NCBI GenBank assembly: GCA_020632395.1
Contig: JACKFQ010000001.1
Coordinates: 226,009-290,008 of the forward strand
Direction of reading: 5' to 3'
Source: Candidatus Nomurabacteria bacterium
Lineage (GTDB): Bacteria; Patescibacteriota; Dojkabacteria; SC72; JAHDCA01
DNA length: 64,000 bases
Made by a program: the position numbers and the translations under genes. Under the pieces are notes generated by a model, which worked only from the letters and a program-made list of their open reading frames with translations, made no database searches and was not told the DNA's origin. Shown here piece after piece: positions 10,148 through 51,591 of the stretch (positions within the stretch are counted from its first letter, which is position 1; every line of letters begins with the position of its first letter).

Positions 10148-11227
10148 TTACTCCAGAATTTTAACTAATTTATTGAATCTATATGAGTTTACCTTCGTAG
10201 TATCACTTTTAGATAAAACTTTAACTTCTTCAAGATATTTCAAAATCCTTAAAGCAGTCATACGTTGGATTCCTGTTTCTTTTGTCATATCTGGTGAATT
10301 AAAAATAGGCATTGAGAATAGAAAATCCAAAACCTTGATTGCATTTTTCGGAGTAGGAATAGTTACAATTTCTTCTTTTAATGAATTATAAAGATTAAGC
10401 ACCTCCTCAACTTTCAAGATGTTCTTTTCAGACTGTTTAATTACTGCAACCAAGAAAAATAAGATCCAACTCTCCCAATCATTATCCTTGGTTATTGCTT
10501 TTAATCTTTGGTAATACTCATCACGATTGGTCTCAAAGTATTCACTAAGATAAAGCATAGGTTGTTTTAGAACCTTTTTATAATATAAAAATAATGGCAT
10601 TAATATCCTACCTGTACGACCATTACCGTCCCAGAATGGATGAATGATTTCAAACTGAGCGTGGATTATAGCAAGTTGTACAAGGTAATCCTTCTCATCA
10701 TAATGAATATATCTCTCAAAATCGGCAAAGAGATCTTCTATTTCATTCGCTTCTGGCGGAACATGACTTGCATGATCTAGTCCCAAAGCAGGGTTGCCAA
10801 TATATACTGGACCAGTTCTAAATTCACCTGGAGTTTTGTCACTACCACGGGCATCTTGCATCAGGACTTTATGATTCTCTTTGATGAGTCTAGCTGAGAG
10901 CGGTAACTCATCAAGTTTATCAATCGCCATGTTCATAGCTTTGCGGTAGTTTAAGACTTCTTGAATATCCTCATACTTATCAGTCTTTTTATTGGGGCTT
11001 GCTTCATACTTCAAAACATCTTCAAGAGAGGCTTGTGTCCCCTCAATCTTTGAAGACAATACAGCTTCTTTTGTGGTAAGAGGGGATAGAAGAATCCTTG
11101 CTTTTGGTATGCTTTGCATATAACCATCAAACTTTGCCACAGCTCTATTAGCCTCACCAATATGCTCAAGGAATTTATCCCAATCTAAATCTTTTATTGG
11201 TAATTTGTGTGGTTTGAATGGTTTCAT
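10148..11227 (-). CDS. fic: Fic/Doc-family protein (AMPylator-type) with internal inhibitory motif and C-terminal wHTH
   Basis: Canonical Fic motif HPFWDGNGRTGR; upstream SSKIEGT matches the (S/T)xxxE(G/N) inhibitory helix. Confidence 0.85.
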   Translation of the reverse strand: MKPFKPHKLPIKDLDWDKFLEHIGEANRAVAKFDGYMQSIPKARILLSPLTTKEAVLSSKIEGTQASLEDVLKYEASPNKKTDKYEDIQEVLNYRKAMNMAIDKLDELPLSARLIKENHKVLMQDARGSDKTPGEFRTGPVYIGNPALGLDHASHVPPEANEIEDLFADFERYIHYDEKDYLVQLAIIHAQFEIIHPFWDGNGRTGRILMPLFLYYKKVLKQPMLYLSEYFETNRDEYYQRLKAITKDNDWESWILFFLVAVIKQSEKNILKVEEVLNLYNSLKEEIVTIPTPKNAIKVLDFLFSMPIFNSPDMTKETGIQRMTALRILKYLEEVKVLSKSDTTKVNSYRFNKLVKILE

Positions 11228-21842: not shown

Positions 21843-23525
21843 CTACTCAGAGAATTTCCATTCAACTATGTTTGCATAACGCTTATAAGGGAAGTCTGCA
21901 TCATTCAGATCGACGCCAGTTACGCGCTGATGGATAATATATGTGTATGAGGGTTCATAAAGCACTAATGCCGGTATTTCATTTGTAATAAATCTGTATA
22001 TCTGTCGATAATCCTCACTCCTAACAGCTCGATCGCTTTCTAATCGAGCCCTTTCCAGTAATACATCTACACGATTGTACTCATATCCGGCAATATTGAG
22101 ATCAGGATAGTTCTTCTTTGTAGAATGCCACAAGTTATATTGATCGGGATCAGCAGTTATTTCGAGTTCGATCAGGAGCAACTCAAAATTTCGTGTAGCT
22201 AATACTTCATTTATCAGGGAATCATACCCAACCCCAGTACTTATTATTGTCACTCCAACCTTCTTTAACATTTCCGTTATCATTTCTGCGATCATGCGAT
22301 TTGTATCATTATCCAGATACACAATACTTAGTGTCAGAGGTTCACCGTCTGAATTTTGATACAAACCTGTTTCTTCATCCAACACATATCCTCCTGCAAC
22401 AAGTTGTTCTGCAGATTTTTCAGTAGAATAAGGGTAAGGATTCTCAGTAGATTTATAGGCCCATGAATCCTCACTCAATGGAGTATCTGAGACCTTATAC
22501 GCTTCTGGGATATTCTCAACGATCTGCTCCCTATCTATCGCCTCCACAATCGCTGTACGCAATTCCAAACTTTGTAATTTACTATTTCTTAGATTGAAAT
22601 ATAGCATCTTCTTGCGTTGATCAATGGGTATAGTATTTATTTTGAATTTTGGATACTGTCCTCCTAATGATGAGCGAAAATCATCTACATTCGATACTGC
22701 ATCAAGCAGATTGTTTTTAAACGCTGTCAAAAGAGACTTTTCATCTGTAAAGTAGATCAACCTTAGATCCTTGATATTTGGTTTCAAAGGATACATTTCC
22801 CAACTACTGAGATCTATCGTGTCTGAATGCAATGATCGGATAAAATACGGTCCAGATCCGATCGGCAATGTGGCTCTCCCAAGATCATACATATCACGAT
22901 CATTCACATTACTTATGATATGTTCAGGAAGTATGAACACGGATAAAGACTCATACACAGAACTGACTATCTCCTCAAAGTGTATGACTATCGAATGATC
23001 GCTTTCAGAGGTGACATCTACACCTGATAGACCGAAACCAAACGTGTCCTGACCTTGATCAGATAGTTTTATCGCTTTTTTAATGGTATATTCAACATCC
23101 TGAGCTGTCACTTCCTCACCATCATGCCAATACATATCTTCACGAAGCAAGAACCGTATACCCCTACCATCTTCTGTAAGATCCCACTCATAGGCTAATG
23201 CTGGCAAGGGTTCTCCTTGGTCATCTATCTCGATCAAACGGGTATAAACGAGTTCGAAGAGAGCTCTATCTATATCGCTACCAGTTACAAACATAGGGTT
23301 GAAAGTAGAGATAGACCCAACCATACCCTCGGTGAATACATCTGATCGCTGTTTACTCATCACTGAAAAGAAAAATGGGCTTGAGAATTGAGAAACCAAG
23401 AGGATAGAGATCAGACCAGACAAAATGATAAATCCCAAGGGTCTAGTCTTGATATGTAATAACCTAAGTTTGTCCGGATATGACCAGAAGAACTCTCGTA
23501 AAGTTGAAAATATTTGAGACTTCAT
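21843..23525 (-). CDS. ABC transporter substrate-binding protein, family 5 (oligopeptide/nickel type)
   Basis: N-terminal TM/signal anchor; size and motifs resemble SBP_bac_5 (region DGRGIRFLLREDMYWHDGEEVTAQDV). Confidence 0.7.
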   Translation of the reverse strand: MKSQIFSTLREFFWSYPDKLRLLHIKTRPLGFIILSGLISILLVSQFSSPFFFSVMSKQRSDVFTEGMVGSISTFNPMFVTGSDIDRALFELVYTRLIEIDDQGEPLPALAYEWDLTEDGRGIRFLLREDMYWHDGEEVTAQDVEYTIKKAIKLSDQGQDTFGFGLSGVDVTSESDHSIVIHFEEIVSSVYESLSVFILPEHIISNVNDRDMYDLGRATLPIGSGPYFIRSLHSDTIDLSSWEMYPLKPNIKDLRLIYFTDEKSLLTAFKNNLLDAVSNVDDFRSSLGGQYPKFKINTIPIDQRKKMLYFNLRNSKLQSLELRTAIVEAIDREQIVENIPEAYKVSDTPLSEDSWAYKSTENPYPYSTEKSAEQLVAGGYVLDEETGLYQNSDGEPLTLSIVYLDNDTNRMIAEMITEMLKKVGVTIISTGVGYDSLINEVLATRNFELLLIELEITADPDQYNLWHSTKKNYPDLNIAGYEYNRVDVLLERARLESDRAVRSEDYRQIYRFITNEIPALVLYEPSYTYIIHQRVTGVDLNDADFPYKRYANIVEWKFSE

Positions 23526-30870: not shown

Positions 30871-33468
30871 ATGGTTTGTCAAAACTGTGGCTTAAGACCG
30901 GCAACAACTCAAATAACAACATCTCGTAATGGACAGGAGCAAACTATCCAATTGTGCTCTGCTTGTGCTTCGCAACTCCAGAGGGGTGGGATGTACGAGG
31001 GTTTCTTTGGGGACGGATCCTCTCCTGACAGATCTACAGGTGAACAGGTTGATATAACGCAATTCTTCTCCGAACGTGCAAAAGATGCAATACAATTAGC
31101 AGCAAATGAGGCTATCGAAAATGGGAATCGAAATATTGATACTGAGCATCTACTTCTAGCGATAATCCAGAGTGATGAGGTTGTAGGAAGGATCCTAAAG
31201 GAATTGAAGGTGGACAAAGGAATGCTCATGGACCAACTGAGATCACAATTTTCTATGGGTGAAGGCTCAACAACACCAGGACTCTCACCACGTGCAAAAC
31301 AAGCCCTTCAATATGCTTTTTCAGAAGCAATGGAATTAGGACATAACTATGTTGGTGGAGAACATATCTTTCTAGGTTTACTGAAAGAGGGTGAAGGTTT
31401 AGCTGCACAGATACTTACCAAATCAGGTATCGAGCATGTGACAGCCAGACAAGCAGTGCTCAAGATCGTTGGAGAAGGTGACGTGGAGGGGAAGAAAGCA
31501 GCTGAAAAGAGTGAAACTCCGACTTTGGATAAATTCAGTCGAGATCTTACACAATTGGCTAGGATCGGAAAGATCGATCCGGTGATCGGTCGCAGTGATG
31601 AGATCACAAGAGTAATTCAGATCCTTTCTCGCAGAAAAAAGAACAATCCAGTACTTATCGGAGAGCCGGGTGTAGGAAAAACTGCAATTGCAGAAGGTCT
31701 TGCCTATCGCATCTCAAAAGGCAATGTGCCAGAGATCCTTAAAGATCGTACTATCAAGGAATTGGATGTAGCATCTCTTGTAGCTGGTTCAAAATTCAGA
31801 GGAGAATTTGAAGAAAGAGCCAAAAAAATAATTGAAGAATTAAATGCCTCCGCCAGATCCATAATCTTATTCATAGATGAATTGCATACTATCGTAGGAT
31901 CAGGGGCACAAGAAGGTCAGATGGATCTATCAAACATGCTCAAACCCGCGTTGGCCCGTGGAGAGTTGCAGGTCATAGGAGCAACTACTTTAAATGAGTA
32001 CAAGAAATATATCGAAAAAGATGCTGCCCTAGAAAGACGTTTCCAACCAGTCCTCGTAAACGAACCAAGTATCGAACAAACAATTGAGATACTTAGGGGA
32101 TTGAGAGATAAGTATGAAGCGCATCACAAAGTAAAGATCGAACCCGAAGCTTTGGATTCTGCCGCAAACCTTTCATCCAGATACATCAAAGATCGTTTTC
32201 TTCCTGACAAAGCGATCGATCTGGTAGATGAAGCTGCAAGCAAGGTTAGACTCACAACATCAACAGAGCCTGAGGAACTTCGCGAGCTGAAAGACGAGAT
32301 AGAAAAAATGGAGAAGGAGCGTGAGTCTTTAAGTCGAGCTAATAAACATGAGGAAAGTGCGAAAGTAAAGATGCAGATCGAACAGGTCAGATCAGATAAA
32401 CTACAACCTCTTCTAGAAGAGTGGAATAAAGTAAAAGGCACGGGTACACCAAATGTCACTTCAGATGACATAATTACAGTAGTAGCTGCAATGACAGGAA
32501 TACCGCTTAATCAACTCCAAGAAGAGGAGAGAGATCGACTGATAAATCTAGAAGATGTACTTCACAAACGAGTTGTCGGCCAAGAAGATGCAGTCAAAGC
32601 TGTATCAGAAGCTGTCCGCAGAGCTAGGGTGGGTCTGAAAGATCCAAATAAACCCATAGCTACTTTTCTATTCCTAGGACCAACTGGGGTCGGAAAGACG
32701 CTACTGGCAAAAACCCTCGCAGAACAGATATTCGGCGATGAAGATGCGATAGTCCGTATAGATATGAGTGAATATATGGAAAAACATGCAGTTTCGAGAA
32801 TGATCGGTTCGCCTCCAGGATATGTCGGTTATGAAGAGGGTGGGCAGTTGACAGAAGCCGTTAGGAGAAAGCCTTTTTCTGTAATACTCCTTGATGAGAT
32901 AGAGAAAGCTCATCCTGATATCTTCAACACACTACTTCAACTTTTTGATGAAGGAAGGCTTACAGATTCTAAAGGTAGGACTGTAGATTTCAAGAATACA
33001 ATTATCATAGCAACTAGCAATCTAGGATCGGAAAAGATCATGGCATATATGGAATTACAAACAAAAGAGAAAAGCTGGGAATCACTCAAAGAACAGCTTA
33101 TGGAGGATCTTAAGAAAGCTTTCAAACCAGAATTCTTGAACAGACTAGACGACATCATACTATTCAAGAGTCTCGAACGAACACAACTGATAAATATAGT
33201 TAAGATCCTTTTAGAAGAGACAAAACAATTGATGAATGCACAAGATGTGGATATAGAGTTCGATGATACTATAGTGGATCATATCATCGAGCTAGGATAC
33301 GAGCCTGAGTTTGGTGCAAGACCACTAAAGAGAGTGATACAAAAGGAGATAGAAAATACCCTTGCCAACAAACTCTTAAATGGAGATCTTTCACCAGGTG
33401 AAAAGTATATCTTGAAGTACCGAGACACGAAGATCGTGATCACACAAAAGAAAAGCCAAAAGAAATGA
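30871..33468 (+). CDS. clpC: ClpC-type Clp/Hsp100 ATPase (two AAA+ modules, Clp_N repeats) with an extra N-terminal C4 zinc ribbon
   Basis: Two Walker A motifs ([18 protein letters not shown]), Clp_N repeats, short middle domain. N-terminal CQNCG...CSAC. Confidence 0.9.
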
Positions 33469-33563
33469 CCTCATCATTCAGCAACATAAAGTAAGTGAAA
33501 ACCTGAAAAAGCAGGTTACTTTGCAACTCCTTGATCGGAGAGAGATGTTGTTAGGTTGATTTA

Positions 33564-33740
33564 CTATTTCTCGGCAATGACGAGATTGACCTCAATGCCC
33601 TCATCACTTATGCGAGATATCTCTAATTCACTTCCACAAAAAGGACATTCGATGATATCTCCTACCTGATATTCCCTTGTTGTATCAAGGTCTATATCAT
33701 TCATACATTCTGGGCACGTTACTGTCTTTTTACCATCCAT
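33564..33740 (-). CDS. LysW/ArgW-like zinc-ribbon mini-protein (amino-group carrier protein family) lacking the canonical C-terminal EDWGE tail
   Basis: 58 aa, translated manually: MDGKKTVTCPECMNDIDLDTTREYQVGDIIECPFCGSELEISRISDEGIEVNLVIAEK. TCPEC...hh.ECPxCGxELEI mirrors LysW. Confidence 0.5.
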   Translation of the reverse strand: MDGKKTVTCPECMNDIDLDTTREYQVGDIIECPFCGSELEISRISDEGIEVNLVIAEK

Positions 33741-33818
33741 TCTGTAATCCTACTAATTTATGTAGAATAGTAATGTATTATATCATGTAGAAGGACTTGA
33801 ACTCATATTTTTTTAGAG

Positions 33819-34730
33819 ATGGGAGATATTATGAAAACCTACACTCCAATTACACGAATATTCATCGACGAGTTACCAGTAGTTATCAAACGTGAGGATC
33901 TTAATGAAACTGGATCACAAAAAGATCGTGGAGTACCAGTGCAGATCGATCATCACATCAAAGATGGCAAAACCCGATTTGTTATATCAAGTTCAGGAAA
34001 TTCTGCTATCAGTGCGATCAACAGATTAATAAATACAGAGTATCACCTCACAGTCTTCTTGAGTAAAAATATCAGCACATCTAAACTACTGCGGATCTCC
34101 TTAATATTAAAGAAAAACATTACACAAGAAGATACTACTATCCAAAATATCGAACTGAAGTTCACTGAAAGACCCGTATCTGATGCATTCAAATATGCTA
34201 ATTCATCTGAGAGCGTTTTACTTAGAGGCTCTATAGATCCTTATGCAACGATAGGGTACCAAGCGATCACACATGAACTAGCAGAACAAAGTCCCGGATC
34301 AACAGATATATTCATACCCACTTCTAGTGGTACAACTTTGGTAGGAATATTCAACGGTTATGAAGACTTAAAGGATAAAGACCCAAATATTTTGATCCCG
34401 AGATTTCATGTGTGCCAAACAACAGCCGTCAACACGATTGCCAGAGATTTTGATACCTCATTTCAACCTACCAAAAATTCAATTGCAGAAAGCATTGTCG
34501 ATAGGGTGGCTAAACGATATCACCAAGTCAGTGATATAATAAAGAGTACTACAGGTTCTGGATGGGTCTTAACAGATGCTGAGATCAGGAAAGCTGTGCA
34601 ACTCCAAAAAGATCTTGGTTTAGAATTATCTAATGAATCAGCACTAGCACTTGCAGGGATGTTAAGAGCAATGCGAAGCTCAAAATATAATATGGATCAA
34701 CCAATAGTATTATCAACAGGAGTGAAATGA
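33819..34730 (+). CDS. fold-type II PLP-dependent enzyme (Trp-synthase beta / threonine synthase / cysteine synthase superfamily)
   Basis: KREDLNETGSQKDRG matches the PLP-lysine motif (..NPTGSFKDRG) of this superfamily. The stop overlaps the next gene's start (ATGA). Confidence 0.65.
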   Translation: MGDIMKTYTPITRIFIDELPVVIKREDLNETGSQKDRGVPVQIDHHIKDGKTRFVISSSGNSAISAINRLINTEYHLTVFLSKNISTSKLLRISLILKKNITQEDTTIQNIELKFTERPVSDAFKYANSSESVLLRGSIDPYATIGYQAITHELAEQSPGSTDIFIPTSSGTTLVGIFNGYEDLKDKDPNILIPRFHVCQTTAVNTIARDFDTSFQPTKNSIAESIVDRVAKRYHQVSDIIKSTTGSGWVLTDAEIRKAVQLQKDLGLELSNESALALAGMLRAMRSSKYNMDQPIVLSTGVK

Positions 34731-36145
34731 GTTTATACGACCCAATCTTTTATATAACTAATGATAGCGAACGAGCCATCGGACTCGAGGAGATTGTAGA
34801 TCTTCATATACTGGCCATAGACGACAGTTGGCTTGCACGTCAGATACACAACAAGACCCACAAGGTATTTATCCTTGAGCGAGAGATAGGTATTCTTAAT
34901 CCTATTTTCCGAAATTCCAATAAACTACTTCAAGAACCACTCACACAAGAGTATATTGATCATCATTCGCAAGATATCCGTCAAGGAATGGTGTTTAAGA
35001 TCGCTCCTAATATTGAAAGAACTGCACAAGCGCTAGGTATACAACTCCTCAATACAACCTCACAACAGAATCAACGTTTCGAAAACAAGATCCCACAACT
35101 AGAATTCCTCAAAGAATTAGACAATATCCCACTACCCAAAAGTGAGATCTATCTCTTGGGAGATACTGATCACCAGAAGCTAATTTCTGAATTCTCGGAT
35201 CCTTACGTCATACAGTTCGATCGAGGACATACAGGGACAGGAACATTATTTATCAGATCTGAAGATGAGCTTGAAGACCTGAAGAGTGCGTTCCCCAAGC
35301 GACCAGTAAGGATATCCCAATACATAGAAGGCGAAGCCTGGACACTCAATGCTGTTTCTACAAGATGGGGGACTCATTACGGTGGTTTATCGTATCAGAT
35401 AACAGGGGTCGAGCCACTCACAAGAGTCTCAGGGGCAACTGTCGGAAACGATTGGAGTAGAGCGCATTCTCTTCCAGATAATACGATCTCCCAGATTGCA
35501 ATGATCACTAAAAAGGTTGGTGACGGGTTATTTGAAGAAGGGTTTAGAGGTTTATTCGGATTGGACCTGATAGTTGACGACAAAGGGAAAGCATTTCTGA
35601 TAGAGATAAATGCACGACAGCCAGCCTCTACAGGGATGCACACCAAACTTATGTTAAAAAACCAACAGATACCGTTGCAACTATTACATATCGCTGAATT
35701 CTTAGGTTTGACCGATAGTGAGCTGATTCAGTATATGACCGATCGATCAAGACCAGCTCATAGCCTAACCAAACTACAAGACCAGCTAAGCGAGCAGGAC
35801 CGATCACTTGGTAGGGATATAAATGCGTCACAGTGTATATTGAGAAATAGTGCAAGTGGAAATATTACTATAGCAGGAGATCTAGGCTCAGGGATCTACG
35901 ATCGAACAGATAGAGATTTATCTGAACAGGCAATTGATGATCGATATAGTATCGATCACTTGGATGAAGACGAGTTCCTCCTCATAACTGCTACTGAAGG
36001 AAGGATCGTCACACCTGGTACCGAGTACGCTCGGATCCAAACGTATGGAAGTGTCCTAGATAACAGTGGTAAACTCTTACCAGTACTAGTAGATATTATC
36101 AATAAGTTAAAAGGGAGTACCCATGAGGAGGCTACAACTACCTGA
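34727..36145 (+). CDS. ATP-grasp superfamily ligase
   Basis: Central ATP-grasp core with LFGLDLIVDDKGKAFLIEINARQPAS (E-x-N metal site) and a glycine-rich loop FDRGHTGTGTLF. Overlaps both neighbours. Confidence 0.6.
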   Translation: MSLYDPIFYITNDSERAIGLEEIVDLHILAIDDSWLARQIHNKTHKVFILEREIGILNPIFRNSNKLLQEPLTQEYIDHHSQDIRQGMVFKIAPNIERTAQALGIQLLNTTSQQNQRFENKIPQLEFLKELDNIPLPKSEIYLLGDTDHQKLISEFSDPYVIQFDRGHTGTGTLFIRSEDELEDLKSAFPKRPVRISQYIEGEAWTLNAVSTRWGTHYGGLSYQITGVEPLTRVSGATVGNDWSRAHSLPDNTISQIAMITKKVGDGLFEEGFRGLFGLDLIVDDKGKAFLIEINARQPASTGMHTKLMLKNQQIPLQLLHIAEFLGLTDSELIQYMTDRSRPAHSLTKLQDQLSEQDRSLGRDINASQCILRNSASGNITIAGDLGSGIYDRTDRDLSEQAIDDRYSIDHLDEDEFLLITATEGRIVTPGTEYARIQTYGSVLDNSGKLLPVLVDIINKLKGSTHEEATTT

Positions 36146-36902
36146 ACCGGCTTGGAAAGTCGTACAAGGTTATATGAAGCTAAAATTTAACGGTACAGTT
36201 GTTCGAACTCCTTACTATCGAAATGTCGAGAGGGTACGTGCAGAACTTCGCTCACTTATTGGTAAAGGTACTCCTGAAGAGATTGTCGAAGATGTCCTTA
36301 TCTTTTCAAAATTGAGGGGCTTCAATCTCCGTCGAGCAACACCTGACGAGATACGACGCTTCATGGAGAAAGAAGGTATCGGTATAGATTGTTCGGGATT
36401 TGTAGCACATGTGTATGACGGATGGCTTAGGGCTGTAAATAAAGGAAGTATAAGATCAAATCTTCTCTGGCCAAAACGCACTCTTTACAGAAAGGTTATA
36501 ACCATCCTAAGACCTATCGAGAACATCAGCTCAGAACTTCTCACAGGAGAATTGAATTGTACCACTATCGAGATCGAAGACACCCTCCCTGGCGATCTGA
36601 TAAGATTGAAGGGTGCTAAACAGGGTGATCATGTTGTACTGATAAGTACGGTCACACTTGAGGAAGACGGTACTCCCAGAGAGATCGATTATGTACACTC
36701 ATCACCACACTATGGTAATGATAATGGTGTAAAGAAAGGAAAGATCAGGATCACAAATCCCGATAGGGGATTAGAGTATCAGGAATGGTTGGAAAAAGAC
36801 CCCAATGGCCGCTGCATCACAAAAGACGGTTATCTAAGGGAACTTAGCGATAATAGGTTGGTTCGGCCTAATTTTATGGAAAAGATCAAATGGGGACAGT
36901 AA
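36123..36902 (+). CDS. cytoplasmic NlpC/P60 (CHAP-like papain-fold) cysteine amidase/peptidase
   Basis: GIDCSGFVAHVY (catalytic Cys), downstream GDHVVLI and HSSPH (His pair); no signal peptide. Confidence 0.55.
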   Translation: MRRLQLPEPAWKVVQGYMKLKFNGTVVRTPYYRNVERVRAELRSLIGKGTPEEIVEDVLIFSKLRGFNLRRATPDEIRRFMEKEGIGIDCSGFVAHVYDGWLRAVNKGSIRSNLLWPKRTLYRKVITILRPIENISSELLTGELNCTTIEIEDTLPGDLIRLKGAKQGDHVVLISTVTLEEDGTPREIDYVHSSPHYGNDNGVKKGKIRITNPDRGLEYQEWLEKDPNGRCITKDGYLRELSDNRLVRPNFMEKIKWGQ

Positions 36903-37981
36903 CCGGATGGATCTTACTATCTTTCTTGCTCACATTCGGATTAGCACCGATCATCATACATATCCTCTATCGATACAGGATCGTACGAAAAACTGATACT
37001 GATTTCTCGGCGATAGTAGGAGAACGATATCTTAAAGCAGGTACACCGATCATGGGAGGTCTGATGATGATCATCAGCATCTTGTTACTTACTATCATAT
37101 TCAATTGGCATGGGAGCACAGTAGTACCGATAGTTGTACTAATAATTTCAGCATTGTTAGGTGGATTTGATGATGTGATGAATATCTACGGTAGGAAGAG
37201 AGTTATCAGAACTGTAGATAAGCAGATCAAATTAGCGAAAGTACACAAACATCTTTCCAAAAGGATCTTTTATTGGATCACACTGCCTTGGGCTGCATAT
37301 AAGAATATCTGGTTTGCACTAGGGTCATACCCAGGAAATGGTATACACGCTGGTGAAAAGATCCTTATACAATTATTTGTGGGTTGCTTAGTTGCTTGGT
37401 GGATATTTTTCAGATTAGGATGGAGCGTTCTTTGGATCCCTGTCATTGGAGAATTTGATATAGGCATACTAATGCCTTTGGTAGTAATCGGTCTCGTGAT
37501 GATCATGACAAATGCAGTCAATATCTCCGATGGTATGGATGGCTTAGCCAGTGGAATGTTGGTACCTAGTTTTATAGCCTATCTCCTCATCGCAATACAG
37601 CAGGAACAGCACGAGATAGCGATCCTTTGCGCAATTACGATAGGAGCCTTACTCGCCTATATATACTTCAACATCAAACCAGCACGAGTTGAGATGGGCG
37701 ATGTCGGAACTCTAGCTTTAGGAGCTTTGCTTGCAACGGTAGCTCTTGCCCTTAGACGAGAATTCTTACTTCCGATAATTGGTGGGCTGTTCTTCATAGA
37801 GATCGGCTCCTCATTATTGCAGGGAGTGTATCGCAAGATCGTCGGAAGAAGGCTTTTAAAGATGGCACCACTGCACTTACACTTGCAGGTACGAGGATGG
37901 TCAGAAGAAAAGACTGTGATGAGATTTTGGTTGTTCTCAGTGATATTTGCGATTTTAGGTCTCTGGATCTCACAATTCTAA
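36890..37981 (+). CDS. MraY/WecA-family polyprenyl-phosphate sugar-1-phosphate transferase (paralog; degenerate HHH motif)
   Basis: 10-11 TM protein; NAVNISDGMDGLASG (DDxxD-type motif), C-terminal MAPLHLHLQVRGW. Confidence 0.7.
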   Translation: MGTVTGWILLSFLLTFGLAPIIIHILYRYRIVRKTDTDFSAIVGERYLKAGTPIMGGLMMIISILLLTIIFNWHGSTVVPIVVLIISALLGGFDDVMNIYGRKRVIRTVDKQIKLAKVHKHLSKRIFYWITLPWAAYKNIWFALGSYPGNGIHAGEKILIQLFVGCLVAWWIFFRLGWSVLWIPVIGEFDIGILMPLVVIGLVMIMTNAVNISDGMDGLASGMLVPSFIAYLLIAIQQEQHEIAILCAITIGALLAYIYFNIKPARVEMGDVGTLALGALLATVALALRREFLLPIIGGLFFIEIGSSLLQGVYRKIVGRRLLKMAPLHLHLQVRGWSEEKTVMRFWLFSVIFAILGLWISQF

Positions 37982-38061
37982 ATGACTCACACTGCTTACT
38001 AGTCGAACTAAGCCAACAAAGTTCTGTCTGTTATAAGAGCTATCTTATCAGAGATTTTTGA

Positions 38062-39081
38062 TCAATAACCGTTCTTCTTGCACTCCAGATACTCATACGC
38101 TCGAGTTGCATAAGCAAGTGGACTCAGAATTAGATCATGTGCGTGGATCATTTTTGTTTCTATCCCACCAAAACCTCTTTTAAATAGTGAGAGGCCATAC
38201 CAAGGATGATCAACATCCTCAGGATCTACAACTCCCCAGAGATTGAGCTCTTTGAATCCGAGTGCTCGTGAATTTCTTATAGCCTCCCAGATCAATAGGT
38301 ATGTTGATGGGATATTGCGAAATTCTGTCAATGATCCACTATGATGATAAAAAGATTTTTCATTATAATGTGTAAAGATAGCGGCTGATATATATCGATC
38401 TTGGTACTTGCTTAAATACATTGTTGCCATATCGTTCTTTGCAAATACTTCGAATTCCCTGCGCACATATTCTTTCTTGTATGCTATCCATTTATTTCTC
38501 TCTACCGCATCAAGAAAGATCTTCCAAAACTCCTCAAATTTGCTCATATCTGTAAATTTTTCAACAGTTATCCCCATCTTCTGAGCCTTCTTTATATAGT
38601 ATCTAGTGTTCTTCCTCATCTGCTTCAATATTTCGTCTTCCGATGGAAACAGATCTATTGAAAGAGTATGCTCAGCATCAGTCTCATGCGAAGTAGAACG
38701 CACTAGTCCTAATTTTTTCATTCGTCCAAGCTCGCGTGAGGAATTTTCAACCAAAGGACTCATTCTTACAAACCATGATTTCTCCTTCTTCCCAATTTCT
38801 CGCAACGATCGCATCAAGAAATTAACCAGATCATCATCCTCCCAATCACATAAAGGAGAATGTCGTAGATGAAGATACTTACCTCGGACAGCCTTGATCA
38901 TGGATATAGGTAACCCCGCCACTAATACACCATCCCGATAGATCCCATAATATCTAAAATCGTTACCGATCTCATTCTGGAACTCTCCCCACAACCAAGA
39001 ATCAATAAAGGTAACCTTAGGGAAGCCTCGGGCGAATTTATCCCATTTCTTTGAGTCTGTGATTGTTCTTAATTCATACAT
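38062..39081 (-). CDS. FemAB-family (aminoacyl-tRNA-dependent peptidoglycan interpeptide) transferase-like protein
   Basis: Size and tandem GNAT-like pattern of FemX/FemAB; W/F/Y-rich C-terminal region. Confidence 0.5.
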   Translation of the reverse strand: MYELRTITDSKKWDKFARGFPKVTFIDSWLWGEFQNEIGNDFRYYGIYRDGVLVAGLPISMIKAVRGKYLHLRHSPLCDWEDDDLVNFLMRSLREIGKKEKSWFVRMSPLVENSSRELGRMKKLGLVRSTSHETDAEHTLSIDLFPSEDEILKQMRKNTRYYIKKAQKMGITVEKFTDMSKFEEFWKIFLDAVERNKWIAYKKEYVRREFEVFAKNDMATMYLSKYQDRYISAAIFTHYNEKSFYHHSGSLTEFRNIPSTYLLIWEAIRNSRALGFKELNLWGVVDPEDVDHPWYGLSLFKRGFGGIETKMIHAHDLILSPLAYATRAYEYLECKKNGY

Positions 39082-40312
39082 GCGAATTATAGTAATTAGT
39101 TAATTCTAAAATGATCCTATCGGCATCTGAGGGTGAGATATTAGCATGCAAGGGTAGGTTGATAATATCCCTACACAGATCCTCAGCATTCGGACACGAC
39201 CCTTCATCATACATCGTGATATATGGAGAGAAAGTTGCAGGAGCTACCGGATTCCAATACCAATCCCCAAGAAGAATATTTTGTTCTTTCATATACTTCA
39301 TCAAACCCGTTCTATCTTTGACACGAAGAGCCATTCGCAAAGGTACCACATCTGGATTTTCTTCAACAATAGTGATATTTCGGTCTTCACCCAATGCTTT
39401 GATGAACTTCTGAAACAGCAAAGCTCGATATGACTGTATCTCTGAGATATCTTCTAGTTGACCCATTGCGATCTCGGCTAGAGCCCCTGGAAGTTTTGTT
39501 GGTATATGCTTCGGTCTCTCACCCTGTTTCTCTTCTTTAGTCGTTGCCCTCGAGATCAACCCACTTTTTGTATAGATCAGATGAAGAACTTTTCCAAAGC
39601 CAGAAACATACGTTGATTTTATAGTTCTCCATAGTATCGGGAAAAGTATCCTCTTGAACACCCAGCTAGAACCAGGGTAGTGAAGTGAAAGATATCTTGT
39701 ATTTAGTGTTGATGCAACATCCAGTTCAGGATCAAATACCATCACACCCCCGTCAACACCAGAAACTACTTTATCTCTTCCGAGGCTATATATGATCACA
39801 TCAGTTTCTGGTAATACCTCACTATTTGATGTGGGTATAAAATGGGTCGAATCTAGGATAAGTAGTATGCCTCTCTGCTTGCAGATCTCCCTCACTTTCT
39901 CATAGCTAGGTACACTCCCAAGAGTCACCTGGACTACAACAGCTACTGTTTGTGGGTCGATCCCAGCGATGATAGTATCCTCAGCTGGGACCAATTTACC
40001 TTTTTGGATATCTATATATCTGGGTGTCAATCCTGCCCATACGGCAGGTAATGACGCTGCAGCACAAGTAAATCCTTGATATACGACATTTCCATTTGGT
40101 TTACTTATGCTACTGAGTAGTTCGAATAAAGCTGATCTAGCATGACTATATGTCAAAACTGTCTTTCCAGGATGTAATTTCAAGAAGTGATCATTGACAC
40201 GAGATATCGATCCAGTATCAAACCATCGTCTAGGGGATAGTAGTAGACGATAGTTCAAGTTTAGATCTTTCGGACGGGTATTTGGAGAATATGAGCTATA
40301 TATCAATTTCAT
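39074..40312 (-). CDS. DegT/DnrJ/EryC1/StrS-family PLP aminotransferase-like protein
   Basis: Fold pattern of sugar aminotransferases (..VIIYSLGRDKVVSGVDGGVMVF..) with a Lys in the expected Schiff-base region. Confidence 0.45.
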   Translation of the reverse strand: MKLIYSSYSPNTRPKDLNLNYRLLLSPRRWFDTGSISRVNDHFLKLHPGKTVLTYSHARSALFELLSSISKPNGNVVYQGFTCAAASLPAVWAGLTPRYIDIQKGKLVPAEDTIIAGIDPQTVAVVVQVTLGSVPSYEKVREICKQRGILLILDSTHFIPTSNSEVLPETDVIIYSLGRDKVVSGVDGGVMVFDPELDVASTLNTRYLSLHYPGSSWVFKRILFPILWRTIKSTYVSGFGKVLHLIYTKSGLISRATTKEEKQGERPKHIPTKLPGALAEIAMGQLEDISEIQSYRALLFQKFIKALGEDRNITIVEENPDVVPLRMALRVKDRTGLMKYMKEQNILLGDWYWNPVAPATFSPYITMYDEGSCPNAEDLCRDIINLPLHANISPSDADRIILELTNYYNSHV

Positions 40313-41733
40313 TTTCTACAATGATGAGATAAATCCTGCATAACTTTGGGTGAGAAACGACCTTCCAACAAGAAAACATCTTTTTCTGTACCACTACAGA
40401 TCTTTTCGTGTACACTTTTTTCATCTACAAGTTCTGAGATCTCATCCCCTGCGATTTTGTGAAGTACAGGATCAGTTGTGATCAGATGAATATTTAATTC
40501 TCGTAGAACACTTACTATACGTTCATACGATGTTTCCAAAGTATCACCTAATTCTAACAATCCCCTTGTAATTGCGGTTCTATTCGTCTGGGAGAATTCA
40601 GAGATATAATGCAAGGCCGCAATAAATCCTTCCACGCTAGAATTATAGCTGTCATCTATCAGGATCGAACCATTATCCAATTCTCTACGAGAAAGCTTCT
40701 GTGATATTGGCTTTAGATGTTTTAATGCTTCTACTATCTGCTTCTCATCCAAGCCCAGATCGATCGCACATGCTAAAGCACCTGTTAGATTAAGAATACT
40801 ATGGTTTCCGGGAAGAACTGTGTTCAAGGATAGATTTAGATTCTTGTATGCAAAGTGGAATGAACCGTTTCCTGTCGGTTGTGAATAAGCATCTGCCTTG
40901 GGATTTGTGATCGAATAAGTGATAACAGTACAGTGAGCAGCTTTGGTCATGACCTCGTAACCGTCGCAATCCATGTTCAAATACAGTTTTCCATCCTTTG
41001 GTAGAGCAGAAGGGAGTTCAGATTTAGCTTTCAATAATGCCTCACGAGATCCAAAAATATCTACATGCTGATTTCCGAGACCAGTGACAAATCCTATCCT
41101 TGGTGGAGTGATGTTTGCTGATCGCGTGATCGTTCCAACGGTATATGCTGCCATCTCACTTATAAAATACTGTGTGTCTGGACGGATCTCGTTGAGAAAT
41201 GACATAGCTACACCAACTTCCGAGTTGTAATTCTTTTTGGTCGATGCCACCTTATATTTTTCTGACAGTAGCCGGTGAAGGATGACCTTCATAGAGCTTT
41301 TCCCATATGAACCAGTAACTCCTATCACAACGGCGTCAGAATCTTTTGCCATCTGCTCGGCTCGTTTGATGATCCTACCTCTTTTATATAGTGCAAGAGG
41401 CTCTGTCAGCAACACACCCAAAAACACCACAACCTTAGATGCCAGAAAACCTAAACCCCAAAATAGTGTATAAGAAAGATCTATCTCCTGAAATCTCAAA
41501 GCCGTCCACCCAAAATAAGCAACCATGATCAAAAAAACAAATCCTGTTATCAGAATATTACGCAAAGATCTTGCAGGCATTTTGAGCGGGATCCAAAACC
41601 CTCGATTATCTTTAATTCCGCTCAGTATTCTAGGTAAAAAATACTCCTTGATCTGAAATTGATAGAGAGTGGGTAGAGAAAAGAATGTAGACACGATCAA
41701 ACCTATTAGTGAGAAGAAGATTGTCATGATCAA
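40309..41733 (-). CDS. murF: Mur ligase, MurF-like, with N-terminal multi-TM membrane anchor
   Basis: VIGVTGSYGKSS P-loop and Mur ligase middle/C domains, preceded by ~110 aa containing 3-4 TM helices. Confidence 0.7.
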   Translation of the reverse strand: MIMTIFFSLIGLIVSTFFSLPTLYQFQIKEYFLPRILSGIKDNRGFWIPLKMPARSLRNILITGFVFLIMVAYFGWTALRFQEIDLSYTLFWGLGFLASKVVVFLGVLLTEPLALYKRGRIIKRAEQMAKDSDAVVIGVTGSYGKSSMKVILHRLLSEKYKVASTKKNYNSEVGVAMSFLNEIRPDTQYFISEMAAYTVGTITRSANITPPRIGFVTGLGNQHVDIFGSREALLKAKSELPSALPKDGKLYLNMDCDGYEVMTKAAHCTVITYSITNPKADAYSQPTGNGSFHFAYKNLNLSLNTVLPGNHSILNLTGALACAIDLGLDEKQIVEALKHLKPISQKLSRRELDNGSILIDDSYNSSVEGFIAALHYISEFSQTNRTAITRGLLELGDTLETSYERIVSVLRELNIHLITTDPVLHKIAGDEISELVDEKSVHEKICSGTEKDVFLLEGRFSPKVMQDLSHHCRK

Positions 41734-42485
41734 CTTTCCTTCAAAAAGTGAATTATATCGTTTGCCACCTCAACTGGTTCTGCTATCGGGAGATTATGTG
41801 TCATATTCTCATAAATTTTCATCTTGGAGTCTGTGATCTTCTCATTTAGATATTTCCCTTCTGCAATAGGAGTTGATAGATCATGCCTCCCCCACAATAT
41901 CAATGTCGGCAAGTGTACAGAACGTAAGATCGGCCTGAGATCCTTCTTAAGGATCTTTCTGTAGATCGATTCTAGATGGAGATATTTCAATGAATCCGAT
42001 CGTCTGTGAAAAAGTTTGTAATATAGTCTTCTCACAGGGAGGAGATAATCTCTCAGGTGATCATAGAAAGGCACGAACTTCGTGAGCTTTCCCAATCCTG
42101 AAACTTTCGGTTCCCGATAATAAGAAGCTGCTATAAGCACAAGCTTCTCAAATAGAGCAGGGTGGTTGGCAGCCAAATATATACCGATCCCCCCTCCAAA
42201 AGAGTGACCTATATAAACAAGTTTATTCAGCTTCAACTGCCTAATGAACTGCAATACCGTTTCAGGATACTGTTCTGCTTCCCAATTCATGGGGGGGTTC
42301 TGACTTTCTCCAAACCCAGGGAGATCTAATAAATAGACTTTCCGTGTTTTTGCTAATTCTCTGGCTAAAGCATCCAGACTTTGTTTGTTTCCACCCCATC
42401 CATGTACAAGTATGGTCGGGTCTCCACTCCCATAGGTCACATACGAGATCTTCAGTTCGTTTACTTTAATATTCATTGATATCAA
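41730..42485 (-). CDS. alpha/beta-hydrolase fold protein
   Basis: GHSFGG nucleophile elbow (GxSxG), LVHGWGG oxyanion region, C-terminal His. Confidence 0.7.
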   Translation of the reverse strand: MISMNIKVNELKISYVTYGSGDPTILVHGWGGNKQSLDALARELAKTRKVYLLDLPGFGESQNPPMNWEAEQYPETVLQFIRQLKLNKLVYIGHSFGGGIGIYLAANHPALFEKLVLIAASYYREPKVSGLGKLTKFVPFYDHLRDYLLPVRRLYYKLFHRRSDSLKYLHLESIYRKILKKDLRPILRSVHLPTLILWGRHDLSTPIAEGKYLNEKITDSKMKIYENMTHNLPIAEPVEVANDIIHFLKES

Positions 42486-43881: not shown

Positions 43882-44640
43882 ATGAAGTACATATTTTCAG
43901 AATTCACCGCTACTTATAGCCAATACGAATTTCCTTATCAGATCTATGTATTTAGAGAGGAAAGTGACAAATTAGAGGATATATATTCAAAAGGAGCACT
44001 TCCTACGCGTATTGACGCCAGGTTGTTCTATGTAGCCCGAGGTGTACGAGTAGATCTTACAAAATTCTCCCCAAATAGTGAAAATCGCAGAATTGCCAGA
44101 AAGACATCCAACTTGCAACTCAAGATTGTTCCTCTCGATATGTTCGATTATCAACCACATATCGGTAAGTTAGCAAAAGACTTTTACGATACAAAATTCG
44201 GAAAAGGTACTCTCTCCGCTCAAAAGGTAAAATGGCTCTTTCGATCTGGTGCATACTCCCATGTGATAGTCTATAAGGATATCCAACAGAACAGTATCAT
44301 TGGGTACTGTATAGTAAATCTCACGGATAACATAATGCATTATGCATATCCTTTCTATCGATTAGAACTTATCAATACAAATACAGGCATAGGTATGATG
44401 ACAAGTGCCATTATGAATGCTTCAGGAAGTGATCTTGATCTTGTATATCTTGGGACATGCTATGACCAGAGAGCTAAATATAAACTACAGTTCAAAGGTA
44501 TAGAATACTTTAATGGGTGGGAGTGGTCTGAGGATATCGATGCTTTAAAGTCATTACTAAATTCCAAACATGATTCTCATCTATTATCGACACCAGGTAA
44601 ACGTACCAATTTAATTGAACATCTGACAGGAACGCCATGA
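43882..44640 (+). CDS. Bpt/ATE_C-like (arginyl/leucyl-tRNA-protein transferase C-domain, GNAT-fold) protein
   Basis: ...SIIGYCIVNLTDNIMHYAYPFY...VYLGTCYDQRAKYKLQFKGIEYFNGWEW resembles the ATE_C signature YLGYwI...M.YK..F.P.E.l..W. Confidence 0.4.
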   Translation: MKYIFSEFTATYSQYEFPYQIYVFREESDKLEDIYSKGALPTRIDARLFYVARGVRVDLTKFSPNSENRRIARKTSNLQLKIVPLDMFDYQPHIGKLAKDFYDTKFGKGTLSAQKVKWLFRSGAYSHVIVYKDIQQNSIIGYCIVNLTDNIMHYAYPFYRLELINTNTGIGMMTSAIMNASGSDLDLVYLGTCYDQRAKYKLQFKGIEYFNGWEWSEDIDALKSLLNSKHDSHLLSTPGKRTNLIEHLTGTP

Positions 44641-46061
44641 AAAAAGTACATTTTATCGGCATTGTAGCTTCTGCTATAGCTCCTATCGCAATTATGATGA
44701 AGGAGAAAGGCTGGGATGTGACTGGTTCAGACGAAGGTGTCTTCGAACCGGCTCTATCTCTACTCAATAATGCAGGAGTGAAGTGGTATGAAGGATACTC
44801 AGCAGAAAGGGTACATGGATGCGACCTGGTGATAATTGGAGGAGGACCATTGATGAAAGACCCTAATAATCCAGAATATCTTGAAGCCCTCCGATTAGGC
44901 TTGCCTACGAAAGGGTACTACTACGCCCTACAGGAATACGTTATCAAAGACAGATCGATTGTCATCGCTGGAAGCTACGGTAAAACAACAACATCTGGAA
45001 TGGTCAATTGGATACTTGAATGTGCTGGGATGAACCCTTCTTTCATGATAGGTGGCAAACCAGGAAATTTCACAACAGGAGTACGCAGTACAGATTCTGA
45101 TATCTCATGTTTAGAGGGTGACGAGTTTGTCTCGGTATTCAACATGGATATGGAACCAAGATTTATCTATTACAAACCCAAATATACCTTGGTTAGTGCA
45201 TCAAAGTGGGATCATATGAATGTGTACCCTACGGAAAAGTCATACACAGATGCATTTCTCAAGTTGGTCAAGCTGACTAAGCAGAACGATGGAGTACTAT
45301 ATCTTTGTGGCTCAGGTACGAATAACGATCTGCTAGAGAGATCTGCAAGTGTGATAGACCTTAGAGTTGTGACATATATGATAGACGGAAAAGAAGCTTT
45401 ACTCGAACAAGACCCTGAATACAGGGCAAAAATATCAGATGTTAGTATTAAAGGAACTACGTTTGAGGTATATCATAAGGCATTATCACTTGGGGAATTC
45501 ACAACAACACAGATTGGCACACACAATGTCGAGAACTCTCTTGGGGCAATAACAGTTTGTCATGATCTAGGGGTACCACTAGAAAAGATCAAAGAGGGTA
45601 TCAAGAGTTTTAAGGGAATTAAGCGAAGATTGGAGATTATTGGTAATAATTCAAAAGGTGCATTAGTAATAGATGATTTTGCTCACTCAGCTATGAAAGC
45701 TGAGGCGTCGCTTAGTGCATTACGTCAAAGTTATCCTGATTCGAAGATAGTCACAGTATACTTCCCTAGGCAATCTGCTAGAGAGAACAGAGAAGAACTA
45801 GATTTTTATCCTGGTGCTTTTGATGCAGCCGATCTTGTGATCATCCCACGCATACAAGTGAAACGTTCAACACCTAAAGAGCAACGGATATATGGGAAGG
45901 ACATTATCGAGGCGATCGCTCATACGCAACCAAATGTCGAGTACATTCCAGTAGAGGAAGATCTTGTTAGTAGATTGGTCAACGAATCCTCCGATAACAC
46001 AGTAATTGTATTCATGTCGGCTAGTGGGTGGGGTAGGGTGATTGATGAGGTGTTGAGGTAA
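44637..46061 (+). CDS. murC: Mur ligase, MurC/Mpl-like (UDP-MurNAc:L-Ala ligase)
   Basis: N-terminal HFIGIVASAIAPIAIMMKEKGWDVTGSD Rossmann region and GSYGKTTTSGMV P-loop. Confidence 0.7.
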   Translation: MKKVHFIGIVASAIAPIAIMMKEKGWDVTGSDEGVFEPALSLLNNAGVKWYEGYSAERVHGCDLVIIGGGPLMKDPNNPEYLEALRLGLPTKGYYYALQEYVIKDRSIVIAGSYGKTTTSGMVNWILECAGMNPSFMIGGKPGNFTTGVRSTDSDISCLEGDEFVSVFNMDMEPRFIYYKPKYTLVSASKWDHMNVYPTEKSYTDAFLKLVKLTKQNDGVLYLCGSGTNNDLLERSASVIDLRVVTYMIDGKEALLEQDPEYRAKISDVSIKGTTFEVYHKALSLGEFTTTQIGTHNVENSLGAITVCHDLGVPLEKIKEGIKSFKGIKRRLEIIGNNSKGALVIDDFAHSAMKAEASLSALRQSYPDSKIVTVYFPRQSARENREELDFYPGAFDAADLVIIPRIQVKRSTPKEQRIYGKDIIEAIAHTQPNVEYIPVEEDLVSRLVNESSDNTVIVFMSASGWGRVIDEVLR

Positions 46062-50562: not shown

Positions 50563-51591
50563 ATGAACGATGCTCTCATACAAACATTTCATTCACTTTT
50601 TATTGCATTTGTAATTTCTATACTTTTTGCACCTTTAATGATCCGCTACCTTTACAGATTCAACCAGGTAGCCGCACATAAAAAAACTAAGCTTGGTGGT
50701 GGTATTGAGGAAGACAACACTCTCTACCTTCGGATAATGAATGTATCTGGTAAGAATGGGATACCTAACATGGGAGGGATCATGGTCTGGGTAGTAGTTC
50801 CATTTACGATCCTCCTCACATTAGACTTGACTCCTCTTATTGTTGTATTGATCTGGTCTTTTGTTCTCTTTGGTGCATGGGGATTCCTTGATGTATTGTT
50901 CACGAATATGATCAAGAACAATCCCGACCTTAAGACTATTCAAGAACGATTTGGTGTGCGTTTATTACGCTTCTCTATAGCAGTCCTTATCAATATTGTG
51001 ATCACATATATGCTATGGAATAGTGGTGTACTCAAAGATCTATCACTAGGTATGATCTCAATATCATTCTCCCTGGTGATGGTGCCTGTACTGGCTATCC
51101 TAGGTCAATTCGCAATATATGCATCTGAACTGACCGATGGACTAGATGGATTGATGATCGGGATATTCGGGATAATCTATACAGCATTAGGATCAATGTT
51201 GCTGATCCAGGGGAAATATGAGCTTCTTCCCGTAATTGGGATCATCATTGGAGTGATACTTGTCGACCTATATTTCAATATCAACCCTGCAAGATTTTAC
51301 AACGGTGGCCCTAGCGCTATGCCTCTAGGTCTAGTTGCTTTTCTGATAGGATTAGCAACAAACAATCTAATACCGTATTTTGTTGCTTCTTCTATAACAT
51401 GGGTAATACTGGCATCTAGCATGATACAGATAATCAGTATGAGATTCTTTAAGCGGAGAGTTTTCAAAATGGCACCGTTACATCACCATTTCCAAACCAT
51501 CGGTTGGCCAGAGACAAAGGTCACTATGCGATTCTGGTTGGTAACGATGGTTTTTTCTGTTATCGGGATATATCTATCGATAGTACTATAA
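50563..51591 (+). CDS. mraY: phospho-N-acetylmuramoyl-pentapeptide transferase MraY
   Basis: ASELTDGLDGLMIG and intact C-terminal MAPLHHHFQTIGW motif. Confidence 0.8.
   Translation: MNDALIQTFHSLFIAFVISILFAPLMIRYLYRFNQVAAHKKTKLGGGIEEDNTLYLRIMNVSGKNGIPNMGGIMVWVVVPFTILLTLDLTPLIVVLIWSFVLFGAWGFLDVLFTNMIKNNPDLKTIQERFGVRLLRFSIAVLINIVITYMLWNSGVLKDLSLGMISISFSLVMVPVLAILGQFAIYASELTDGLDGLMIGIFGIIYTALGSMLLIQGKYELLPVIGIIIGVILVDLYFNINPARFYNGGPSAMPLGLVAFLIGLATNNLIPYFVASSITWVILASSMIQIISMRFFKRRVFKMAPLHHHFQTIGWPETKVTMRFWLVTMVFSVIGIYLSIVL

Follow-up and report, generated by a model that had tools for sequence, protein, structure and literature searches.

A lysine-tailed LysW-fold mini-protein and its conserved enzyme partners beside peptidoglycan genes of Candidate Phyla Radiation bacteria

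The closest described counterparts of the locus reported here are the amino-group carrier protein (AmCP) systems, LysW-LysX-LysZ-LysY-LysJ-LysK and Vzb22 in Streptomyces, in which a small, very acidic zinc ribbon with a short acidic tail is encoded together with an ATP-grasp ligase and a hydrolase. The attachment residue of the classical LysW/AmCP proteins is the C-terminal Glu of an EDWGE-type tail, and its γ-carboxylate carries the substrate (PMC9303977). Our subject is a four-protein module in a 64-kb stretch of contig JACKFQ010000001.1 (hereafter the window, meaning that whole stretch) from an ultra-small bacterium of the Candidate Phyla Radiation (CPR). It consists of a LysW-fold zinc-ribbon mini-protein and, divergently encoded, a fold-type II pyridoxal phosphate (PLP) enzyme, an ATP-grasp ligase and an NlpC/P60 (C40) amidase, followed by the phospho-MurNAc-pentapeptide transferase MraY (Table 1). 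The zinc ribbon belongs to the same Pfam family as the AmCPs, and the load-modify-release logic is likely the same. However, the proposed carrier of the module has the tail [ED]E[EG]K and not EDWGE, which calls for another attachment chemistry, and it probably gives an amine rather than a carboxylate; the modifier is a fold-type II PLP enzyme; release would fall to an NlpC/P60 cysteine amidase and not to the M20 metallopeptidase LysK; the ligase lies in another ATP-grasp branch; and the genes stand in a cell-wall context in CPR bacteria.

Two further kinds of system are related in their logic. In pearlin/scaffold-peptide synthesis (TglA-TglB, 3-thiaglutamate), a small ribosomal peptide receives an amino acid at its C-terminal end, where this residue is modified before a protease releases it (PMC9303977). 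Loading of pearlins is tRNA-dependent (PEARL enzymes), takes place on the α-carboxylate and leads to secondary metabolites, whereas the module has an ATP-grasp ligase and a primary cell-wall context. Glutathionylspermidine (Gsp) synthetase/amidase (GspSA) and trypanothione synthetase likewise fuse an ATP-dependent amide ligase to a papain-like cysteine amidase, and so make and break the same amide.

CPR bacteria (Patescibacteria) account for a large share of bacterial diversity and have a minimal metabolism, yet a cell wall is made; to our knowledge, the source of its unusual building blocks is largely unknown. The four-protein module beside mraY and mur genes is a candidate for a missing step of this synthesis. 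The reading that we put first, while holding it tentatively, is that this conserved CPR module runs a polarity-inverted LysW-fold covalent carrier cycle that feeds peptidoglycan precursor synthesis. The module would then extend known carrier-protein-mediated amino-acid metabolism. The initial annotation of the window had suggested an undescribed carrier-protein or ligase/amidase route to a cell-envelope precursor, and we still take this to be the best hypothesis. A literature search, which did not cover subscription literature, found no description of the gene set or of Lys-tailed LysW homologues.

The lysine-tailed mini-protein and its three enzymes

The coordinates of the five open reading frames (ORFs), their start-to-stop overlaps and the divergent placement of the mini-protein gene agree with the initial annotation, and the motifs that it had quoted (KREDLNETGSQKDRG in the PLP enzyme, GIDCSGFV in the amidase and TCPEC...ECPFCGSELEI in the mini-protein) were all found. 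On the plus strand, the overlaps are 4 nt between the PLP enzyme and ligase genes (ATGA), 23 nt between those of the ligase and amidase, and 13 nt between those of the amidase and MraY; the MraY gene is translationally coupled to the amidase gene. A consensus scan of 33400-38200 for promoters (sigma-70) and terminators gave promoters at no more than the shuffled expectation, none of them within the divergent spacer.

The mini-protein matches PF21344 (Zn_ribbon_LysW) at 39.2 bits against a threshold of 27, as do 12/12 close homologues, and its best sequence matches in the PDB are LysW chains (5k2m_E and 3wwl_A). It carries two CxxC pairs and has a net charge of −9.5 (family median −8.5); given this charge, a role as a DNA-binding regulator is unlikely. 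The LysW-like character proposed at the outset thus holds for the fold but not for the tail, which does not have the LysW/ArgW layout: the sequence closes with ...LVIAEK, EDWGE is absent, and the terminal residue is Lys and not Glu. The curated NCBIfam LysW models were not reached by the mini-protein (NF041070, 31.8 versus 75; TIGR01206, 24.3 versus 53.2).

The tail [IVL][IVL][ED]E[EG]K-COOH is present in 44/44 complete mini-protein sequences from related loci, the IAEK of the window being a mild variant of the [ED]E[EG]K consensus. An exhaustive profile search with the mini-protein, covering 1.84 billion representatives, gave 344 matches. Among the top 150 representatives, 38 tails read EEEK, 17 read DEGK and ∼20 are close variants with a terminal Lys; DWGE-like tails of the classical LysW kind were met only among the weaker matches. 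Judged by sequence, we class the mini-protein as a LysW-fold zinc ribbon that lies outside the AmCP family as currently defined. Because the tail ends in Lys and not in the Glu of EDWGE, this is not a LysW/LysX pathway.

Some gene callers begin the mini-protein at Met13 (46 aa), which loses the first CxxC pair (L004-L006, same species; P0241); the homologue alignment favours the 58-aa start. In L092/L093, positions 9001-9312 encode a 103-aa protein of two tandem LysW-like zinc ribbons with an EEEK end, divergent from the PLP enzyme gene. Downstream of this tandem ribbon, the ATP-grasp region gives a weak BLAST match (27%) with no gene called, possibly a pseudogene or an assembly problem.

The ligase matches ATP-grasp_3 at 32.4 bits, its glycine-rich loop (DRGHTGTGT) is intact, and the Mg ligands Glu293 and Asn295 are present. 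The comparison figures for the ligase were 21.9 for PurK, 21-21.8 for ATP-grasp peptide ligases and L-amino-acid ligases and 19.7 for LdmS, with lower figures for Ddl (18.1), LysX/ArgX (17.2 and 16.3) and RimK (16.0). Sequence profiles weakly favour the L-amino-acid ligases LdmS and BesA. The protein is an active-looking ATP-grasp enzyme of PylC / PurK / L-amino-acid-ligase type, in a different ATP-grasp branch from LysX/ArgX (RimK). Orthology to the housekeeping D-Ala-D-Ala ligase Ddl, which the initial annotation had named as a finding that would count against its proposal, was looked for and not found; neither the Ddl sequence models nor the closest structural class fit.

The amidase has invariant Cys90 (in DCSG) and His170 in 50 sequences, and a test for the papain-like NlpC/P60 fold was positive. 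Its nearest relatives are γ-D-Glu-diamino-acid endopeptidases. YkfC, MepS, CwlO and LytE share its catalytic fold and Cys-His dyad and are 20-22% identical to it; unlike these, the amidase has no signal peptide, carries a family-specific N-terminal extension of ∼85 aa (PYYxN...GKGxPEEI), is fused or coupled to a ligase, and scores below the gathering threshold of PF00877 (19.2 versus 23 bits), with 27/50 family members matching at E ≤ 0.01.

A single polypeptide combines ligase and amidase in P0007, P0013, P0016, P0022 and four further loci (at least 8 genomes). These natural fusions bear out the early suggestion that the two activities are coupled in a GspS-like manner. The Gsp synthetase/amidase architecture itself (N-terminal CHAP, C-terminal Gsp synthetase) was not found in the pair, and membership of the amidase in the CHAP/Gsp group was dropped in favour of NlpC/P60.

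In one distant lineage, a canonical NlpC/P60 protein (Pfam match; MepS-like, 61.9 bits) occupies the position of the amidase (L094:3913-4791 and L095:3972-4850). The L094 protein has an extra N-terminal region, and neither shows BLAST similarity to the amidase of the window. This looks like a non-orthologous displacement.

The PLP enzyme is of fold-type II and matches PALP at 101.6 bits. Lys35, within KREDLNETGSQKDRG/GSQKDRG, is invariant, as is the SSSGN loop. When the family profile was compared with the PDB, threonine synthase was nearest (9e-26), followed by Ser dehydratase (2e-16), Asp/Ser racemases (2e-15/5e-15) and SbnA (4e-10). Fold-type II, the PLP lysine and the SxGN loop are common to the PLP enzyme, threonine synthase, the fold-type II racemases and SbnA. 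However, every threonine synthase equivalog cut-off was missed (best model 88 bits versus 358), and the phosphate-binding NPxRxEGQKT of threonine synthase (NPyRieGQKT in the Aquifex enzyme) is replaced, aligning with DPYATIGYQA. Because of these two features we class the enzyme as threonine-synthase-like, yet not a threonine synthase; it is also ∼50 aa shorter than the threonine synthase of the same genome. Fold-type II racemases and CysK likewise have a Ser immediately preceding Gly-Asn. The SSSGN loop would be compatible with racemase chemistry but is not diagnostic of it.

The enzyme identities that had been read from the sequence therefore stand for all the plus-strand genes. As for the profile searches proposed with them, PF21344, PALP and Glycos_transf_4 (94.3 bits for the MraY of the operon) were matched, whereas PF00877 stayed below threshold and the RimK/LysX type was not found.

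Conservation among peptidoglycan genes

When one genome per species was scanned, relatives of the ATP-grasp protein were found to be encoded in 381 genomes. The best 80 of these loci belong to Dojkabacteria, Magasanikbacteria, Uhrbacteria, Taylorbacteria, Paceibacterota and generically labelled metagenome-assembled genomes. Loci were gathered from the ligase side and then from the mini-protein side, and the proteins of the window were mapped onto their six-frame ORFs. Dozens of distantly related loci hold the same gene set, their proteins being 30-60% identical; recurrence on this scale is far beyond chance. The neighbourhood is strongly conserved in relatives, and the initial annotation's own caveat, that it might not be, is refuted.

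Of the ligase-anchored loci, 33 extend for 8 kb or more to either side. All of these (33/33) encode the amidase, and 28/33, the same loci for both, have the PLP enzyme gene and the Lys-tailed mini-protein gene. Around mini-protein genes taken as anchors, the PLP enzyme gene is divergently adjacent, and the ATP-grasp gene comes next wherever the contig extends far enough. The PLP enzyme gene is the most faithful neighbour of the mini-protein gene, and their divergent arrangement is kept in nearly all related loci. A few loci are arranged PLP(-), lysW(+) grasp nlpc, and in L021, L026 and L031 the mini-protein gene is immediately upstream of the ligase gene and co-oriented with it. A search for other recurrent neighbour families returned housekeeping genes only.

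The module is held in at least six gene orders, always in a mur/mraY/ftsW context. With lysW, grasp, nlpc and ateL standing for the genes of the mini-protein, ligase, amidase and an ATE_C-like protein, and murC' for a MurC/Mpl-like ligase gene, these are: order 1 (window), ftsW murG clpC, lysW(-), PLP grasp nlpc mraY; order 2, murB(-), grasp nlpc mraY ateL murC', lysW(-), PLP; order 3, ateL murC', lysW(-), PLP grasp nlpc mraY ftsW murG murC; order 4, murE ateL murC' murA mraY nlpc, lysW, PLP grasp ftsW murG; order 5, mraY paaX nlpc murD, lysW, PLP grasp ftsW murG ... ftsA; and order 6, mraY, non-orthologous canonical NlpC/P60, murD, lysW, PLP grasp. Orders 4 and 5 place the module between mraY and ftsW, which is the murD slot of the standard division and cell wall (dcw) cluster. 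The order-4 loci yielded no murD-like ORF, and a true MurD adjoins the mini-protein gene in orders 5 and 6 (260.7 and 202.9 bits). The simple idea that the ATP-grasp enzyme replaces MurD is weakened by this true MurD beside the module in L087 and L094.

The surrounding 30 kb of the window form a scattered cluster of cell-wall and division genes: ftsW, murG and clpC lie upstream; downstream are femX-like, degT-like, murF, alpha/beta hydrolase, murE, ATE_C-like, MurC/Mpl-like, murB, murA, second mraY, mraZ, rsmH and ftsI genes. The 64-kb window holds no gene for Ddl, MurD, Alr or MurI. Nor does it hold LysZ, LysY, LysJ or LysK, as had been stated, and none of these four recurs at the related loci. 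The pair formed by the ATE_C-like (arginyl/aminoacyl-tRNA-protein-transferase-like) gene and murC' (murC-prime) accompanies the module in the majority of lineages, among them Dojka-, Magasanik-, Taylor- and Uhrbacteria. We regard murC' as a paralog because the uhrbacterial locus L049 holds a canonical MurC besides. L087 and L094, in which MurD adjoins the mini-protein gene, have no such pair within the stretch examined.

Two MraY-family genes are present in the window, and the initial annotation had taken that of the operon for the paralog. The comparison reverses this. The operon copy scores 169.8 bits with TIGR00445, below the cut-off of 192, and keeps DD94-95, DGMDG214 and GDVG270, with HLH329 in place of the usual HHH. 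The second copy scores lower (Table 1) and, by inspection, is without two of the three Asp motifs (GFLDVLF for DD; NGGPS for GDxGS), keeping DGLDG and PLHHH. In other lineages, the MraY adjoining the module is always closer to the operon copy. On this evidence the operon MraY is most likely the canonical conserved orthologue, and the second copy looks like a degenerate or re-tasked paralog.

A proposed carrier cycle and its alternatives

We infer covalent loading of the mini-protein, its loading site, the PLP reaction and the cargo from the features above. In brief, the cycle would have four steps. With a small amino acid as substrate, the ligase would activate the carboxylate by forming an acyl phosphate and would join it to the N-ε amine of the carrier's terminal Lys; in a less likely variant, it would extend the terminal α-carboxylate of the carrier. 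With the α-amino group of the cargo free, the PLP enzyme would racemise the tethered cargo or carry out a β/γ-replacement. The NlpC/P60 amidase would then hydrolyse the isopeptide bond, which would free the product and regenerate the carrier, and the product would pass to the adjacent Mur ligase / MraY steps.

Where a carrier fold has a flexible acidic tail with an invariant last residue, the simplest reading of that residue is as the site of attachment. The terminal Glu carboxylate of LysW takes a substrate amine and, by analogy, a terminal Lys amine would take a substrate carboxylate. PylC of pyrrolysine synthesis and the Enterococcus faecium D-aspartate ligase Asl_fm are ATP-grasp enzymes that carry out such carboxylate-to-side-chain-amine ligation. 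Since a tether to the Lys amine would leave the α-amino group of the cargo free, it would suit a PLP enzyme, and the ligase-amidase fusion would be natural because both would bind the same tail. As weak evidence, the basic character of the PLP enzyme and amidase families (median isoelectric points 8.8 and 9.1) fits docking of an acidic carrier. Carrier logic as such has precedent in the AmCPs and the pearlin scaffolds (PMC9303977).

As to the cargo, the best single guess is glutamate, converted to D-Glu (γ-linked). Three things favour it: what the amidase is related to, the position next to MurD or in its slot, and a PLP active site compatible with racemase chemistry. We nevertheless think this particular assignment unlikely to be right, and the cargo could equally be another stem-peptide residue. 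It is possible, though doubtful, that a carrier bearing its cargo on the C-terminal Lys side-chain amine, and so shielding the carboxyl and not the amino group, makes an essential peptidoglycan building block in much of the CPR together with a PLP enzyme and biosynthetic NlpC/P60 release. One example would be an ATP-driven, stereo-gated conversion of L-Glu to D-Glu that replaces MurI; the module would also fill the murD slot of dcw in lineages without murD in the cluster. If true, the carrier-protein principle (LysW AmCPs, pearlin scaffolds) would gain a new attachment chemistry and PLP chemistry on a protein tail and would reach primary cell-wall metabolism, and NlpC/P60 enzymes would gain an intracellular biosynthetic role. 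The parts of the module are small, soluble and easily expressed, which would permit in vitro testing without cultivating the organism.

Several points weigh against the carrier cycle. The mini-protein gene is tied most tightly to the PLP enzyme gene, divergently and outside the ligase operon, and in 5/33 loci the ligase and amidase have neither a mini-protein nor a PLP enzyme gene within 10 kb, so that the two pairs may serve distinct functions. We know of no fold-type II PLP enzyme that acts on protein-tethered substrates, and it is unclear why a carrier should be needed to racemise a free amino acid. Moreover, two lineages have MurD beside the module.

The alternative that survives best takes the module as two separate sub-modules without a covalent carrier, the ligase and amidase acting on a precursor and the PLP enzyme and zinc ribbon working apart from them. 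The ligase would add a (D-)amino acid to UDP-MurNAc-peptide as Asl_fm does, or make a dipeptide for a Mur ligase, and the amidase would edit or reverse that amide in the Gsp synthetase/amidase manner. The PLP enzyme would be a racemase or β-replacement enzyme supplying the amino acid, and the zinc ribbon its non-covalent subunit, chaperone or substrate-mimicking regulator. This would account for the tight, translationally coupled unit of ligase, amidase and MraY, for the pairing of the mini-protein gene with the PLP enzyme gene, sometimes several kb from the ligase gene (Magasanik/Taylor order), and for the five loci of 33 that hold ligase and amidase with the other pair not nearby. Stem peptides are the normal target of NlpC/P60 enzymes, and the Glu-Lys end of the tail may resemble the D-Glu-L-Lys of a stem peptide. 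However, a simple subunit or regulator would not be expected to retain an invariant terminal Lys on an acidic tail across phylum-level distances, all other known instances of the LysW fold are covalent carriers, and the mini-protein is far too acidic for DNA binding. In L021, L026 and L031 its gene is, in addition, co-oriented with that of the ligase and directly upstream of it. We therefore regard two independent sub-modules as rather unlikely.

A non-orthologous replacement of Alr and Ddl would have the PLP enzyme racemise alanine (or serine) and the ligase make D-Ala-D-X for MurF, the amidase being a VanX-like dipeptidase or proof-reader. Ddl is itself an ATP-grasp enzyme, the relatives of the PLP enzyme include fold-type II racemases, and the window lacks Ddl, Alr, MurI and MurD while murA, B, C', E, F, G, mraY, ftsW and ftsI are present. 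The mini-protein is left without a role by this explanation, which we judge improbable.

We give just as little credence to scavenging or recycling of host muropeptides. Here stem peptides would be imported and cut by a YkfC-like cytoplasmic NlpC/P60 enzyme, with the pieces re-used by the ATP-grasp enzyme together with the MurC/Mpl-like ligase and one residue converted by the PLP enzyme. CPR bacteria are host-dependent, the amidase is cytoplasmic and closest to γ-D-Glu-diamino-acid endopeptidases, L094 has a canonical-type NlpC/P60 with an extra N-terminal region at the amidase position, an Mpl/MurC-like paralog accompanies the module, and the window contains an oligopeptide-binding protein gene. 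Against this, no transporter gene is conserved in the neighbourhood, it would be odd to fuse a ligase to the amidase that supplies its substrates, and again there is no role for a Lys-tailed mini-protein.

Synthesis of lysine or arginine/ornithine by a classical LysW/ArgW amino-group carrier pathway, which the PF21344 match and the nearby ATP-grasp gene might suggest, is rejected as extremely improbable by the Lys end without EDWGE, the failed NCBIfam LysW models, a ligase that is not LysX/RimK-type, the absence of LysZ, LysY, LysJ and LysK from the window, and the peptidoglycan gene context.

Other features of the window

Table 1. Positions, in window coordinates, of the module, of its proposed functional residues and of other features
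Feature	Position	Strand	Size	Remark
IS200/Y1 transposase	1848-2243			left-end island
AAA_14/DUF4143 ATPase	2596-3780			left-end island
GmrSD-type restriction enzyme N-domain protein	4457-6133			left-end island
Fic protein	10148-11227			left-end island
PGA_cap (CapA-like) protein	17482-19176
ORF without Pfam/NCBIfam match	19196-21682	+	828 aa
Oligopeptide-binding protein	21843-23525
Zinc-ribbon mini-protein	33564-33740	-	58 aa	ORF listing
Lys58 codon (C-terminal)	33567-33569	-		proposed attachment residue; homologue alignments
Divergent spacer	33741-33818		78 bp	between mini-protein and PLP enzyme genes
PLP enzyme	33819-34730	+	303 aa	fold-type II
Lys35 codon, PLP enzyme	33921-33923
ATP-grasp ligase	34727-36145	+	472 aa
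NlpC/P60 (C40) amidase	36123-36902	+	259 aa	cytoplasmic
Cys90 codon, amidase	36390-36392
His170 codon, amidase	36630-36632
MraY (phospho-MurNAc-pentapeptide transferase)	36890-37981	+	363 aa
FemX-like, DegT-type and alpha/beta hydrolase genes with murF, murE	38062-42485	-
MurF-like ligase	40309-41733	-		TIGR01143 200 bits (cut-off 288)
ATE_C-like (ateL)	43882-44640	+		overlaps start of MurC/Mpl-like gene
MurC/Mpl-like ligase paralog (murC', murC-prime)	44637-46061	+		sequence models
Second MraY-family gene	50563-51591	+		between murA and mraZ; TIGR00445 116 bits

Identical proteins are present in GCA_020632435.1, which carries the label 'Candidatus Nomurabacteria', whereas Dojkabacteria (WS6) is the label of most of the nearest relatives.

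Downstream of the module, on the minus strand, murF and murE are interspersed with genes for a FemX-like transferase, a DegT-type aminotransferase and an alpha/beta hydrolase. The order of these genes is kept in the closest relatives (L007, L009, L012 and L014), and the arrangement hints that the stem peptide or a side chain may be tailored. The MurF-like ligase among them falls below its model cut-off; its first ∼120 residues are hydrophobic, with ∼3-4 membrane helices predicted by eye, and stand where the normal N-terminal domain would be expected.

The left of the window has an apparent small mobile or defence-like island, made up of the transposase, the ATPase, the GmrSD-type protein and the Fic protein. 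Between this island and the module, the PGA_cap protein gene precedes the 828-aa ORF, and that ORF lies in the stretch with the highest AT skew of the window (0.325).

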